This document shows positions 4,340 to 38,697 of a stretch of 64,000 bases of DNA, in pieces. The first letter of the stretch is position 1. Every line of letters begins with the position of its first letter. This DNA is from an uncultured Planctomycetia bacterium (GTDB lineage: Bacteria > Omnitrophota > Gorgyraeia > 2-01-FULL-45-10). Under the pieces are notes generated by a model. The model made no database searches, was not told the origin of the DNA, and saw only the letters and a program-made list of their open reading frames with translations. Made by a program: the position numbers and the translations under genes. The stretch lies in contig CAYGRZ010000002.1 in the NCBI GenBank assembly GCA_964352425.1, forward strand, positions 18,240 to 82,239, written 5' to 3'.

Positions 4340-4414
4340 GCCGAGGTAGCTCACTGGTAGAGCGCTGCCCTGAAAAGGCAGGCGTTGCGTGTTCGATTCA
4401 CGCCCTCGGCACCA
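4340..4414 (+). tRNA. tRNA-Phe (anticodon GAA) with encoded CCA
   Basis: Cloverleaf read manually: acceptor GCCGAGG/CCTCGGC, D-arm GCTC/GAGC, anticodon stem CTGCC/GGCAG with loop CTGAAAA, T-arm GCGTG-TTCGATT-CACGC, discriminator A then CCA. Confidence 0.85.
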
Positions 4415-4481: not shown

Positions 4482-4507
4482 GGGGGAAAACGGGGTTTTC
4501 CCCCTTT
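4482..4507 (+). terminator. Hairpin GGGGGAAAAC-ggg-GTTTTCCCCC followed by TTTGG, a possible terminator after the tRNA
   Basis: Perfect 10-bp stem seen directly, with a short T-run. Confidence 0.45.
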
Positions 4508-4592
4508 GGCGTTCGCTCACCAGTAATCATTCCAGGTTCGCTCACTGAACCCCCTTTCCTTAAAGGAGTCTCAATCAATCTCGGGCCTACTT

Positions 4593-4631
4593 TATACAAG
4601 AGAAGGAAAAATATTTTCCTTCTCTTGTATA
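4593..4631. terminator. 39-bp perfect palindrome (18-bp arms), candidate bidirectional terminator
   Basis: TATACAAGAGAAGGAAAA-ata-TTTTCCTTCTCTTGTATA, AT-rich on both sides. Confidence 0.45.
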
Positions 4632-4729: not shown

Positions 4730-5158
4730 ATGACGAAGAAGGTAATTTTGTTGATTTTAGTTTTATTCACCGCCGCTTTCGTCGCGCAGCTTGCCTTCGC
4801 GCAGCCGGCTAATCAGGACAGCACCAGCGAGCGCATTGCCGCGGAGAGGAGGGCCCAGGATCTGCTCGAGAGGGGTATCGCCCCGCACGATCGCATCAGG
4901 GCGACGACAACCGAGGAGCGCAAGTACGATAAGAGCGTGGACGGCTGGCTGCAGCCATCGGAGGCAAAAAAGATGTTGGAGGACAGGGCCTCGCCAAAAT
5001 TCGGTACGTATAAGACAAAAGCCGATAAGGAGCCGAAAGAAAAGTATGATCCCTACGGCACCGACGAGGCCGATGAGGGATCCGCGACAAAATACGACCG
5101 ATACGGAAACGAGGTAACCGGCGCTGACGAGCCGCCGGCGCCCGATGAGAGCTTATAG
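4730..5158 (+). CDS. Hypothetical secreted protein with charged KYD-x-YG repeats
   Basis: Signal peptide MTKKVILLILVLFTAAFVAQLAFA. Candidate TTGACC-17-TATTAT promoter and AGGAGG RBS upstream. No recognisable domain. Confidence 0.5.
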   Translation: MTKKVILLILVLFTAAFVAQLAFAQPANQDSTSERIAAERRAQDLLERGIAPHDRIRATTTEERKYDKSVDGWLQPSEAKKMLEDRASPKFGTYKTKADKEPKEKYDPYGTDEADEGSATKYDRYGNEVTGADEPPAPDESL

Positions 5159-5717
5159 CAAGAAGAGAGCGATGCGAAACATAAGGAACGTCTTCAGGGG
5201 CAGGCTGCTTAAGGTGATGGTGAAGCAGCAGCGCCTGCCCAGCGGCTATCTCGCCATCTTCGAGATGATCGAGCACCCCGGCGCCAGCCTTGTGGTGCCA
5301 TTCCTGGGCAGGGACAGGATAATAATGCTGAGGCAACTCAGGCCGGTCATCGGGTCCCACATATATGAACTTCCTGCCGGCACGCTCGATAGGAATGAGA
5401 CGCCGCTGGCATGCGCCCGACGGGAGATCGTAGAAGAGACGGGGTACTCCGCCAGGCGTTTTACTCTTTTGGGAAAGATATATCCGGTCCCCGGCTACTC
5501 GACGGAGAGGATATACCTATATAAAGCCACAGGATTGAAGAAAGTAATACACGATTGTAGGGCACGCTTAAGTGTGCCCTACCAGCGCCATGGAGAAGAG
5601 GATGAGGTCATAGAATCTTTCGTTGTCACAAAGTCTGCAATAAGAAAGCTCTTCAGGAGCGGAAAGATCACCGACGCAAAGACCATAGCCGCCCTCGCCT
5701 TCTGCGGATGGCTCTGA
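5145..5717 (+). CDS. NUDIX hydrolase (ADP-ribose pyrophosphatase-like) carrying an in-frame palindromic insertion
   Basis: NUDIX box GTLDRNETPLACARREIVEETGY. Start uncertain (Met codons at 5145 and 5172). Residues IHDCRARLSVPYQRH are encoded by a REP-like palindrome. Confidence 0.7.
   Translation: MRAYSKKRAMRNIRNVFRGRLLKVMVKQQRLPSGYLAIFEMIEHPGASLVVPFLGRDRIIMLRQLRPVIGSHIYELPAGTLDRNETPLACARREIVEETGYSARRFTLLGKIYPVPGYSTERIYLYKATGLKKVIHDCRARLSVPYQRHGEEDEVIESFVVTKSAIRKLFRSGKITDAKTIAALAFCGWL
5554..5582. repeat. REP-like palindromic element copy (ATTGTAGGGCACG-CTTAAG-TGTGCCCTAC) inside the NUDIX CDS
   Basis: Matches the perfect palindrome at 36655-36686 at 28 of 29 aligned positions. Confidence 0.6.
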
Positions 5718-36560: not shown

Positions 36561-36608
36561 ACAGCGCTTAGCGGAAATCGGTAGTTGTAATTGGTAGCAT
36601 CTCAGCAA

Positions 36609-36642
36609 CGACGTAGGGGAGGTTTAAACCTCCCCTACGTCG
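36609..36642. repeat. Perfect 34-bp palindrome CGACGTAGGGGAGG-TTTAAA-CCTCCCCTACGTCG
   Basis: Seen directly. GTTTAAAC core. Confidence 0.7.
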
Positions 36643-36654
36643 GGAGTTACTGTA

Positions 36655-36686
36655 ATTGTAGGGCACGTTTAAACGTGCCCTACAAT
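36655..36686. repeat. Perfect 32-bp palindrome ATTGTAGGGCACG-TTTAAA-CGTGCCCTACAAT (REP-like element; diverged copy at 5554-5582)
   Basis: Seen directly. Second of two tandem palindromes between the CpxP-like gene and the lexA promoter. Confidence 0.7.
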
Positions 36687-36691
36687 TTTAC

Positions 36692-36720
36692 TTGACAGGT
36701 GAACGGACGTTCACTATACT
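36692..36720 (+). promoter_or_regulatory. lexA promoter: TTGACA-17-TATACT with a LexA (Cheo-type) SOS box GAACGGACGTTC at 36701-36712 inside the spacer
   Basis: Consensus hexamers with exact 17-bp spacing. GAAC-N4-GTTC palindrome overlaps the spacer, consistent with autoregulation. Confidence 0.6.
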
Positions 36721-36732
36721 TGTATACGAGAT

Positions 36733-36780
36733 CACCTCGGAGGTGGTCCCGGAGAAGACTGATACCGCACCTCCGAGGTG
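36733..36780 (+). promoter_or_regulatory. 5'-UTR stem-loop: 13-bp perfect inverted repeat CACCTCGGAGGTG ... CACCTCCGAGGTG beginning ~6 nt after the predicted lexA transcription start
   Basis: The arms are exact reverse complements, separated by 22 nt. Confidence 0.5.
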
Positions 36781-36803: not shown

Positions 36804-37385
36804 ATGGACAAACTCACGCTAAAGACTTACGCCGGGCACCTCGAGCGTTTCTACCAGGACGCCGGCCGCATGCCGTCCTACTCGGAGATGCTCGGGCTCT
36901 TCGGCCTGAAGTCGAAGAACGCCGTATTTAAACGCATCGCAAAATTGGTCGACGCCGGCCTCGTCCGCAAAGACTCCCGCGGATGTATCCTGCCGGCTCA
37001 CCTTAGGCGCCCGGCACGGCTTCTGGGCTTCGTCCAGGCCGGATTCCCCAGCCCGGCGGAGGAGGAGACGCAGGACCTCGTAAGTCTCGACGAATATCTC
37101 ATATCCAATCCCGAATCTACATTCCTTCTCAAGGTCGAGGGCGATTCGATGGTCGGCGCAGGGATCAACCCGGGAGATCTCGTCCTCGTCCAGCGCGACC
37201 TGAACCCGCGGCCGGGCGATATCGTCATCGCGCGCATCGATAACGAGTGGACGCTCAAATATTTCGACACGTCGAAGGGCAAAGTCACCTTAAGGGCCGC
37301 CAACGACAAATACCCCGTCCTTGCGCCGCGCCAGGAACTCGTGATAGGCGGCGTCGTCATAGCCAATGTCCGCAAATATCGCTGA
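36804..37385 (+). CDS. lexA: LexA repressor (S24 peptidase)
   Basis: N-terminal wHTH. Cleavage-site region and Ser/Lys dyad region (GDSMVGAGINPGDLVLVQ ... TLKYFD ... GGVVIAN). 193 aa from the ATG at 36804. Confidence 0.85.
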   Translation: MDKLTLKTYAGHLERFYQDAGRMPSYSEMLGLFGLKSKNAVFKRIAKLVDAGLVRKDSRGCILPAHLRRPARLLGFVQAGFPSPAEEETQDLVSLDEYLISNPESTFLLKVEGDSMVGAGINPGDLVLVQRDLNPRPGDIVIARIDNEWTLKYFDTSKGKVTLRAANDKYPVLAPRQELVIGGVVIANVRKYR

Positions 37386-38697
37386 TCGGCCCGACGGCGC
37401 CGGATTCATTACCCTCTCATCGTACCCGCAGGCAATAGCCCATGTGGACTGCGACGCCTTCTTCACCTCCTGTGAGGCCGCGCGTGACCCTGCCCTGAAA
37501 GGAAGGCCTGTCGCGACGGGAAAAGAGCGCGGCATCGTCTCCTGTCCGAGCTACGAGGCGAAGGCCGCAGGCGTGGTGCGCGGCATGCGTCTCGGCGATG
37601 CGAAGAAGGCGTGCCCTGGCCTCATAATTCTCCCGAGCGACTACGAGCTCTATTCGATCTACTCGACGCGGATGTTCGCGATCCTGCGCCGCTTTACGCC
37701 GCAGGTCGAGGAATACTCGATAGATGAGGCCTTCTGCGATCTGGCGGGACTCAGGCGTTTCTACAGGACCTCCTATCCAAATATCGGCCGCGGGATAAAA
37801 GAGGCCGTCACCAAAGATCTCGGCATCACGGTCTCCGTAGGCGTGAGCCTGTCCAGGATACTCGCCAAGCTCTGCTCAAAGCATCAGAAGCCCGACGGCT
37901 TCACTGCCGTCCCGGGCCGTAAGCTTCACGAATTCTTAAAAGACATGCCTCTCGAACGCGTCTGCGGCTTCGGCCCGAACACCGTCGCGCTCCTTAATAA
38001 ATGCGGCGTCGGCACCGTCCTCGACTATGTCAGGCAGCCCGAAAATTTCGCGGCAAAACTCCTCGGCAAGATCGGCGTCGAGCTTTGGCGGGAACTCAGG
38101 GGGCAGCAGGTCTACGAGGTCTCGACCGAGCCGAAGGAGCGGTACCTGTCCATCAGCAAGACGAAGACCTTCTCGCCGGCGTCGGCCGAGCGTGACTTCG
38201 TGAAAGGCAGGCTCATGCGCAATATGGAATCGGCCTGCATCAGGCTGCGCCGCCACGGCCTCTCAGCCCGCTGCCTGGCCGTGTACCTGCGCCGCGCGGA
38301 TTTCAGCCACGCCGGCTGCGAGGCGCGCCTGACGCGCCACTCGTCATCGACGCTCGACTTTGCCGCCTCCTGCGCCGCGCTCTTCGACGCCATCTTCAAG
38401 GAACGCACGCCCTACCGGGCCACCGGCGTCATCCTTTCGGAGATAGTAGAAGGCGAAGGGGAAGGCCCCGACCTTTTTGACGACCCGGTCAAGATCGAGC
38501 GGACCAGGAGGCTCGGCCACGTGATAGACGAGATAAACGCCTCGTACGGAAAGCACGCGATACACCTGGCGTGCACGGACATCATCGGCAGCAAGGCGCC
38601 TCATCCGCGAAACGAAAGCGCCTGGCGCACAACTGCGCTCCTGAAAGGCGAGACCTCCCGCAAGCGCCTGGCCATCCCGCTCCTCAAGCTCAAATAA
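37366..38697 (+). CDS. Y-family (error-prone) DNA polymerase, DinB/UmuC-like
   Basis: IAHVDCDAFFTSCE and YSIDEAFCDL catalytic motifs. Overlaps the lexA stop, forming an SOS operon. Confidence 0.85.
   Translation: MSANIADRPDGAGFITLSSYPQAIAHVDCDAFFTSCEAARDPALKGRPVATGKERGIVSCPSYEAKAAGVVRGMRLGDAKKACPGLIILPSDYELYSIYSTRMFAILRRFTPQVEEYSIDEAFCDLAGLRRFYRTSYPNIGRGIKEAVTKDLGITVSVGVSLSRILAKLCSKHQKPDGFTAVPGRKLHEFLKDMPLERVCGFGPNTVALLNKCGVGTVLDYVRQPENFAAKLLGKIGVELWRELRGQQVYEVSTEPKERYLSISKTKTFSPASAERDFVKGRLMRNMESACIRLRRHGLSARCLAVYLRRADFSHAGCEARLTRHSSSTLDFAASCAALFDAIFKERTPYRATGVILSEIVEGEGEGPDLFDDPVKIERTRRLGHVIDEINASYGKHAIHLACTDIIGSKAPHPRNESAWRTTALLKGETSRKRLAIPLLKLK

Follow-up and report, generated by a model that had tools for sequence, protein, structure and literature searches.

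An In-Frame Palindrome in a NUDIX Hydrolase Gene Is Probably a GTAG-Type REP Copy from a RAYT-Paired Omnitrophota Family

We analyzed a 64,000-nt stretch of DNA from an uncultured member of the Omnitrophota (GenBank assembly GCA_964352425.1, contig CAYGRZ010000002.1, positions 18,240 to 82,239; hereafter the window), in which a gene encoding a NUDIX hydrolase contains a short palindrome. With a probability of about 0.8, this palindrome represents a copy of a GTAG-type repetitive extragenic palindromic (REP) element, from a family that is paired with REP-associated tyrosine transposases (RAYTs) in Omnitrophota, and is tolerated in-frame in a surface loop of the encoded protein. The host coding sequence (5172–5717, + strand), taken from the list of open reading frames (ORFs), encodes an ADP-ribose pyrophosphatase-like protein of 181 aa (P0001; Pfam NUDIX, E = 5.8e-13); an alternative upstream ATG at 5145 gives a NUDIX ORF of 190 aa (5145–5717). 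A previous reading of the same DNA without database searches (the sequence-only reading) had described a 29-bp near-palindrome in this gene; it is present at 5554–5582 (ATTGTAGGGCACGCTTAAGTGTGCCCTAC), and its symmetric core comprises 26 nt (5557–5582, + strand; GTAGGGCACGCTTAAGTGTGCCCTAC). The core, which belongs to a subfamily with CTTAAG at the center, forms an 11-bp stem with a 4-nt loop; the sole mismatch between the arms, where G at 5566 faces T at 5573, is a G·U pair in the sense-strand RNA, and the predicted RNA fold of this copy has an energy of −21.5 kcal/mol (z = −3.7). As the sequence-only reading had stated, the palindrome is in-frame; it is translated as (C)RARLSVPY, with no stop codon interrupting the 181-aa or 190-aa ORF. 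Directly upstream of the core lies the decayed 5′ box of the inserted unit (5544–5556, + strand; GTAATACACGATT; consensus GTTATCCACA-NNN), which encodes V-I-H-D-C; box and core together represent 39 nt, or 13 codons. One ortholog, at locus L002, carries a core that differs by 1 nt from the window core and has ATTATCCACAGCA at the position matching the window box. The peptide pattern read from box and core is VIHDCRARLSVPY in the window and IIHSSRAHLSVPY in L002; across the insertion, the window protein reads ...KKVIHDCRARLSVPYQRHGEEDE....

The palindrome in the NUDIX gene is a real, lineage-specific in-frame insertion. A codon-aware alignment with the orthologs from loci L005, L006, L007, and L008 places a net insertion of 36 nt (12 codons) at 5547–5582 (+ strand), with edges that may shift by a few nucleotides. 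Alignment of 33 protein sequences showed the 12 extra residues at a single place, between GLKKV and (Q)RHGEEDE, and about 30 aligned orthologs, including the closest relatives of the window gene, lack these residues; a covariance model of the repeat family (see below) detected no family copy in the insertion-less orthologs L005–L008. In all, about 120 close orthologs are without the 12 residues. The estimate of 12–14 extra residues made from sequence alone corresponds to 12 residues relative to orthologs of 166 or 169 aa, the lengths of most close homologs (n = 1391 for all NUDIX homologs, as compared to 181 aa for P0001); all homologs with a taxon name were assigned to Candidatus Omnitrophota. 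The same NUDIX allele was found in an independent Logan assembly (L001), and a related allele is represented by six variants from several samples. These six alleles form P0002, the only other ortholog cluster that carries the element; they carry it at the same codon boundary, in the same frame, and with a perfect core.

An AlphaFold2 model of P0001 had a mean predicted local distance difference test (pLDDT) score of 83, with solely residues 128–143 scoring <50; in this model, the low-confidence segment forms a loop between strands 114–120 and 147–153, in agreement with the loop position that had been proposed for the extra residues. The inserted loop is located just upstream of a conserved E142-x-D144-E145 motif. 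The closest solved structures are NudF and ADP-ribose pyrophosphatases; in the structure alignments shown, this loop is shorter in NudF (5c7q, 5c7t) and in the 8zr8 protein, and the aligned spans of other ADP-ribose pyrophosphatases are also shorter than that of the window protein. The signature of ADP-ribose pyrophosphatases consists of the Nudix box GX5EX7REUXEEXGU and a proline about 16 residues downstream. Both parts (G70-x5-E76-x7-R84E85-x2-E88E89-x-G91 and P107) are invariant in the 33-sequence alignment, and the conserved residues downstream of the Nudix box are also intact in P0001. This signature, the Pfam NUDIX match, and the NudF and ADP-ribose pyrophosphatase structural relatives place the host gene among the NUDIX ADP-ribose pyrophosphatases; its product is predicted to be still active.

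The core is part of a large repeat family with the architecture GTAGGG-stem-(TTTAAA or CTTAAG)-stem-CCCTAC. A search with GTAGGGNNNGTTTAAACNNNCCCTAC (20 fixed nt; 596 Gb / 4^20, i.e., an estimate of <1 chance match) across a collection comprising one genome per species identified at least 119 stretches, nearly all in metagenome-assembled genomes (MAGs) of Omnitrophota, including at least 30 copies in MAG JAUYBI01 alone; at least 120 stretches were found with the CTTAAG-center pattern in a metagenome scan. Among the matches listed, the stems associated with a TTTAAA center were GAGG/CCTC (67), CAGG/CCTG (33), TGGG/CCCA (14), and GACG/CGTC (12), and those associated with a CTTAAG center were CACC/GGTG (27) and CACA/TGTG (26). 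One of the two commonest CTTAAG-center types, GTAGGGCACACTTAAGTGTGCCCTAC (at least 26 occurrences among the metagenome matches listed), differs by 1 nt from the NUDIX core. A phage origin of the repeat was rejected, as no viral contig matched the repeat pattern. Across an alignment of 110 family members, the free stem positions were paired in 97–100% of sequences, with 48–53 double changes each; the covariation score was 0.43, as compared to 0.16 after shuffling (none of 500 shuffles reached 0.43) and 0.08–0.11 when the pairing partner was slid. Because the search patterns fixed the outer GTAGGG/CCCTAC and the center, the invariance of outer arms and center in the collected set is uninformative; GTAGGG...CCCTAC is also present in all three window copies, where it does not arise by construction. 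Non-conserved flanks usually extend the palindrome (at least three further pairs in 61 of 142 copies, versus 2.2 copies expected). About 90% of copies in related genomes, among the matches listed, are located outside long ORFs, and the repeat loci range from 26 to 69% GC. A literature search on palindromic repeats in Omnitrophota found no description of such repeats.

The covariance model, built from the 110 family members, all collected outside the window, and run unfiltered on the 64 kb, matched exactly three window sites (36–51 bits; E-values from 6e-11 to 7.5e-17) and gave no further significant match in the window. These sites are the NUDIX core (36.1 bits, E = 5.9e-11) and two intergenic, perfect 34-nt palindromes of the TTTAAA subfamily, one with a GAGG stem (36609–36642; CGACGTAGGGGAGGTTTAAACCTCCCCTACGTCG; 47.8 bits) and one with a CACG stem (36654–36687; AATTGTAGGGCACGTTTAAACGTGCCCTACAATT; 51.3 bits). 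For the source genome, the 64 kb thus hold three copies, two of them intergenic. The two intergenic copies form a doublet, with a predicted fold of −56 kcal/mol (z = −10), between a Spy/CpxP-like gene and a lexA-like/dinB operon. The pattern GTAGGG-N8-24-CCCTAC occurs three times in the window, versus 0.03 expected, and none of 100 shuffles reached three. An Rfam scan of the window detected a tRNA only, and no known RNA family at the palindrome sites. The sequence-only reading had listed two sites, the NUDIX copy and the palindrome at 36655–36686, and had taken the former for a slightly diverged copy of the latter; the two indeed belong to the same family, and the copy at 36654–36687 has the same outer arms as the NUDIX copy, but the proposed derivation does not hold, because the NUDIX core is 1 nt from the abundant GTAGGGCACACTTAAGTGTGCCCTAC of the CTTAAG subfamily, separate from the TTTAAA-centered copy. 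The third copy, at 36609–36642, has a different inner stem, and its core matches exactly the type most often found in Omnitrophota genomes (67 of 150 among the matches listed). Rather than being confined to two sites, the element hence occurs three times in the window and is dispersed in Omnitrophota.

A longer stretch around the first intergenic copy (36596–36646) is 90% identical to positions 4495–4545 of locus L068 (MAG JBAZKH01), a non-orthologous site, in the arrangement ATCTCAGCAACGAC-core-GTCGGGAG; the shared stretch takes in about 14 nt of left flank and 8 nt of right flank. Because this unit recurs together with its flanks, the mobile unit can be about 50 nt long and extend beyond the core.

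A motif screen of the fetched loci identified ORFs with HUH and Tyr motifs in four loci, each adjacent to the repeats. Three of these (L040, L047, and L210) contain 163-aa ORFs that are bracketed by repeats in the order core-GTTGTGGATAAC-(TAT)-ATG...TAA-GTTATCCACAGA-core, with the box flush with both ends of the ORF. The L040 ORF scored 111 bits on the NCBIfam model REP_Tyr_transpos (NF047646; cutoff 80) and reached just 25 bits with the IS200 model, for which the cutoff is 55. Another type of RAYT, found at L134 with tandem copies of a related palindrome after it, scored 84 bits on NF047646; the L040, L210, and L134 ORFs, which are the three that were scanned, all matched Pfam Y1_Tnp. A GTAG head is a hallmark of RAYT-associated REPs (PMC3733652), and this head together with the RAYT-flanking (REPtron) arrangement led us to classify the element as a GTAG-type REP; the "REP-like" label that it had been given was appropriate. 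We infer that a RAYT would also have moved the NUDIX copy.

The GTTATCCACA box was also found on 65 repeat sides among about 266 REP copies (loci include L033, L069, L098, L123, L138, L152, L174, and L205), always in the same orientation and 2–4 nt outside the core; a variant, GTTATTAACA, is also recurrent, and 29 of 79 occurrences of the 8-mers TTATCCAC/GTGGATAA in 0.88 Mb adjoin a core. The 9-mer TTATCCACA within the box is the textbook DnaA-box consensus. The box may be a site that the transposase recognizes or cleaves. On 15 of the 65 box-bearing repeat sides, the ATG of a long ORF follows 2–11 nt after the box (e.g., at L037, L085:293, L087, L101, L121, L125, L139, L178, and L227). Judged by their N-terminal sequences, some of these ORFs are similar to tyrosyl-tRNA synthetase, a XerC-like recombinase, and a FabF-like enzyme, and three are the RAYTs. 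Since the ATG is located only 2–11 nt after the box, too little space is left for a usual ribosome-binding site; the REP and box unit may supply or replace 5′ expression signals.

Copies inside other genes show the same constraint on reading frame as the NUDIX copy. The 26-mer contains TAG in one frame and TAA in another, and the third frame (AGG-xxx-xxx-TTA-Axx-xxx-CCC-TAC) is stop-free; because the core is symmetric, the opposite strand has the same stop pattern. The NUDIX copy and all intragenic copies identified use the single stop-free frame, which encodes R-x-x-L-x-x-P-Y. About 9 of 142 copies in the genome set (among the matches listed) are located inside long ORFs with Pfam domains flanking or spanning the site, and all of them read R-[AG]-G-L-N-L-P-Y; the hosts encode a lipid-A acyltransferase/Elm1 (LpxL-Elm1) fusion, a carbamoyltransferase, two GT1 and one GT2 glycosyltransferases, a MiaB-like radical-SAM enzyme, dTDP-glucose dehydratase (RfbB; in two genomes), and PheT. 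About 10 of 101 judgeable copies in the metagenome set (again among the matches listed) are intragenic, with TatD (three contigs), ComEC, and RmlD among the hosts and with peptides such as RAHLSVPY or RAPLRVPY. Over both sets, about 7–10% of copies are located in verified genes. Several intragenic copies also carry the box, reading (V/I)-I-H-x-x-R-A-x-L-x-V-P-Y (e.g., in TatD at L166 and in L197). The suggestion that a mobile unit can insert into coding sequence is thus borne out by the lineage-specific NUDIX copy, the large dispersed family, the RAYT-flanking copies in relatives, and the in-frame copies in other Pfam-verified genes. The same NUDIX loop also received an unrelated element in another ortholog (P0015; L004, 607–642), where a 36-nt hairpin (CGCCTGCCCG-N16-CGGGCAGGCG; predicted fold −25.9 kcal/mol) adds PACPKALLQAGR in-frame; no second copy of this hairpin was found in the fetched loci.

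The three TatD genes (L166:8039, L227:3265, and L242:820) carry the REP at the same position, around residues 86–98 of the TatD domain, in two subtypes: RAPLRVPY with the box and RAHLSVPY without it. Two subtypes at one position suggest that the TatD loop was hit twice or that the subtype was replaced in place. Together with the unrelated L004 hairpin in the NUDIX loop, they suggest that permissive loops are hit repeatedly.

RAYTs are HUH/Y1 enzymes that act on single-stranded DNA hairpins. We propose that a 13-nt box (GTTATCCACA-NNN) with its 26-nt hairpin core landed in the NUDIX gene or was carried into it by recombination. The copy would have survived there because the length of the insertion is a multiple of three and because the copy was placed in the one frame of three in which the palindrome is stop-free; in addition, the site would be a surface loop between two β-strands, upstream of E142-x-D144-E145, and the fold could tolerate 12 extra residues there for this reason.

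Several observations weigh against this explanation. The window box is decayed, with 7 of 10 matches to GTTATCCACA at 5544–5553, and the NUDIX junctions show neither a target-site duplication nor a defined cleavage motif in the alignments with L005–L008. A screen for HUH and Tyr motifs, made without a profile search, found no RAYT-like ORF in the 64-kb window, and all copy numbers for the family are lower bounds. Outside the loop, P0001 is closest to the insertion-less P0003–P0007 (80–82% aa identity), and the other carrier, P0002, is just 73% identical to it. The cores of the two carriers are nevertheless identical at 25 of 26 positions, as compared to 74% identity over the gene and 54% at third codon positions; such a near-identical core fits either active maintenance or recent spread. 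As P0001 is nearer to insertion-less P0003–P0007 than to carrier P0002, a single insertion in a common ancestor is insufficient, and one ancestral insertion common to the window and L002 is unsupported by similarity or by neighbor-joining analysis. The patchy distribution reflects more than one event: independent re-insertion at the same permissive site, an ancestral insertion followed by several precise losses (the related IS200/IS605 enzymes are known to excise precisely), or short-tract recombination.

The last of these, by which the window lineage would have gained its insertion through short-tract homologous recombination from an L002/P0002-like carrier and not through a transposition of its own, is possible, and we hold it tentatively. 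The codon boundary and the reading frame of the insertion are shared by both carriers, and P0002 was never nearer to P0001 than P0003–P0007 were in 300 neighbor-joining bootstraps. Similarity along the gene is a mosaic: a tract of about 75 nt around the insertion (window ~5520–5610) is nearer to L002 (76–95%), and L005/L008 match the window at 33–43% just upstream of the insertion and more closely over most of the remaining gene (76–100%). This mosaic would favor some recombination or shared loop ancestry. However, the 13 nt directly 5′ of the core differ at 6–7 positions between the carriers, which is odd for a recent transfer, and GLKKV and (Q/E)R(H)x-EEDE are the consensus in many insertion-less orthologs too, so that the similarity of the flanks may be retained ancestry; in addition, the L004 hairpin and the two TatD subtypes show repeated independent insertion into a permissive loop.

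The conservation of the core could also mean that the hairpin is kept in the NUDIX mRNA for a regulatory role (slowing translation, stabilizing the mRNA, or binding a protein) rather than tolerated as a passenger, which would be compatible with a REP origin but which we consider rather improbable. The sequence-only reading had named an mRNA hairpin as its alternative; the observations do not require one. Consistent with such a role, the core is nearly invariant between carriers whose silent sites are 54% identical, the single difference keeps a G·U pair on the sense strand only, the core peptide RAHLSVPY is invariant among the six P0002-cluster alleles while both flanks vary, and the fold is stable (−21.5 kcal/mol); Di Nocera et al. 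also argue for a function of many REPs as RNA elements (PMC3733652). However, the core is equally conserved at hundreds of unrelated intergenic and genic sites, indicating that its conservation is a property of the family rather than of the NUDIX gene; furthermore, the closest relatives lack the hairpin, one G·U pair is weak evidence, and conservation could stem from a recent spread by recombination. That the palindrome arose by chance in native coding sequence, or is an assembly artifact, has nothing beyond the small size of the element in its favor and is hardly credible: three matches were found where 0.03 were expected, the covariance model E-value for the NUDIX copy is 6e-11, and the element is missing from orthologs and present in independent assemblies and samples. 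Shuffles, covariance model, ortholog comparison, and independent assemblies together refute it.

The presence of perfect palindromes just upstream of the lexA-like/dinB operon would agree with a further alternative, that the palindromes are operators of a dimeric DNA-binding protein (LexA at lexA/dinB), with the NUDIX copy as a chance or secondary site; we regard this as very improbable. The lexA-like gene (~36804–37385), which overlaps the dinB-type polymerase gene (37366–38697), is preceded by its own promoter-like TTGACA (36692–36697) and TATACT (36715–36720) separated by a 17-nt spacer. This spacer contains a separate perfect palindrome, GTGAACGGACGTTCAC (36699–36714; GTGAAC-GGAC-GTTCAC), downstream of the REPs, which we take to be of the GAAC-N4-GTTC SOS-box type. 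The 26-mer, by comparison, is found at hundreds of unrelated loci, in genes, and around transposase genes, and its stem positions show covariation rather than invariant bases, a pattern expected of a hairpin more than of an operator recognized by its bases. The separate GAAC-N4-GTTC palindrome and the ubiquity of the REP core rule out the 36.6-kb doublet as a LexA operator. By its sequence, the locus looks like an autoregulated lexA-dinB cassette in Omnitrophota. Two 13-mers in the leader of the lexA-like gene, CACCTCGGAGGTG (36733–36745) and CACCTCCGAGGTG (36768–36780), are near-palindromic, are reverse complements of each other, and are 22 nt apart; they contain GGAGG/CCTCC and could form a structure that sequesters the ribosome-binding site. 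Locus L038 contains orthologs of the lexA-like and dinB genes (59% and 58% aa identity), with a REP directly after dinB.

Beyond a tolerated REP copy in the NUDIX gene, one may speculate that a single ancient, phylum-wide REP-RAYT system with a coding-compatible 13-codon unit has repeatedly decorated permissive loops (NUDIX, TatD, PheT, RmlD, and ComEC) and that its core is actively maintained in perfect form even within genes, for instance through RAYT-dependent replacement, correction of one arm by the other, or RNA-level selection; we consider this broader scenario unlikely. The match of TTATCCACA to the DnaA-box consensus and the frequent position of the box 2–9 nt before start codons raise the idea that the elements might tie into replication-initiator binding or gene expression.

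Two other inverted repeats were observed in the window. A perfect 18-nt inverted repeat with a 3-nt spacer (TATACAAGAGAAGGAAAA / TTTTCCTTCTCTTGTATA; 4593–4631), unrelated in sequence to the REP family, is located between a tRNA gene (4340–4411) and an ORF starting at 4730, and may act as a terminator or bind a protein. The other, at 159–197 (ATTTACATAACTATTTGTA / TACAATGAGTTATGTAAAT), is an AT-rich inverted repeat of 19 nt with 89% complementarity.

For annotation, the 12 extra NUDIX residues represent the footprint of a REP and not a functional motif, and R-x-x-L-x-x-P-Y segments (often R-A/G-G-L-N-L-P-Y) in other Omnitrophota proteins are likewise REP footprints. The list of REP-RAYT hosts gains an uncultivated phylum, whose family is unusually uniform; roughly every tenth copy is translated, and orthologous genes have received insertions in the same loop on more than one occasion. 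This uniformity, frequent translation, and recurrence in the same loops make the family useful for studying REP movement, palindrome upkeep, and protein tolerance.

Among known systems, insertion of IS200/IS605 elements leaves the target unduplicated, and their excision can be precise; the lack of a duplication and the patchy presence of the NUDIX copy would fit such behavior. These elements and their small non-autonomous derivatives share a Y1/HUH transposase (Pfam Y1_Tnp) and hairpin ends with the Omnitrophota family. However, the Omnitrophota transposase scores as a RAYT (111 bits) and not as an IS200 TnpA (25 bits; cutoff 55), and the repeats are single short palindromes without distinct left and right ends or an identified target tetranucleotide. 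Rickettsia palindromic elements (RPEs) were reportedly described by Ogata et al. in 2000 as being located in-frame in genes that stay functional, adding a peptide at the protein surface. RPE-1 is about 100–150 bp long and Rickettsia-specific, and to our knowledge no dedicated transposase has been assigned to it. In-frame palindromic insertion into genes, resulting in a surface peptide segment, is thus common to both, but the Omnitrophota unit is 26–39 nt long, GTAG-type, RAYT-associated, and unrelated in sequence; it works like an RPE without being one. [quoted passage not shown] MITEs make target-site duplications. Their length is 70–300 bp, with terminal inverted repeats of 15–30 bp (PMC3733652); the Omnitrophota unit, in contrast, is 26–52 bp long, with a largest recurrent composite of about 52 bp, and shows no duplication at the NUDIX junctions.

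The closest known system is represented by the GTAG- and CGTC-tagged REPs that Di Nocera, De Gregorio, and Rocco (2013, BMC Genomics 14:522; PMC3733652) described across bacteria, including the PVC (Planctomycetes-Verrucomicrobia-Chlamydiae) superphylum, along with RAYT genes flanked by GTAG REPs ("REPtrons"). The same study reported that, in several species, REPs lie wholly within ORFs, O. terrae (Verrucomicrobia) having the largest number of GTAG cases, and equated some Rickettsia RPEs with such repeats (PMC3733652). As seen in related genomes, the Omnitrophota family shares with these systems a short GTAG-headed stem-loop, many dispersed and mostly intergenic copies that often form doublets, a RAYT flanked by the repeats, and a minority of copies that are located wholly in real genes and translated as short loop insertions. 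Since intragenic GTAG REPs have already been published (PMC3733652), the general picture remains unchanged, and the neutral-loop explanation is likely the same as in the cases of Di Nocera et al. In Omnitrophota, however, the GTAG head is incorporated in a 26-bp palindrome that is symmetric throughout (GTAGGG...CCCTAC); a single core architecture with few stem and center subtypes is found phylum-wide, whereas many described REP families are species-specific; and many units carry an adjacent GTTATCCACA box, which abuts the RAYT ORF on both sides. The phylum, the uniformity of one core across it, the fully symmetric design, and the attached GTTATCCACA box are apparently undescribed and represent what is new here.

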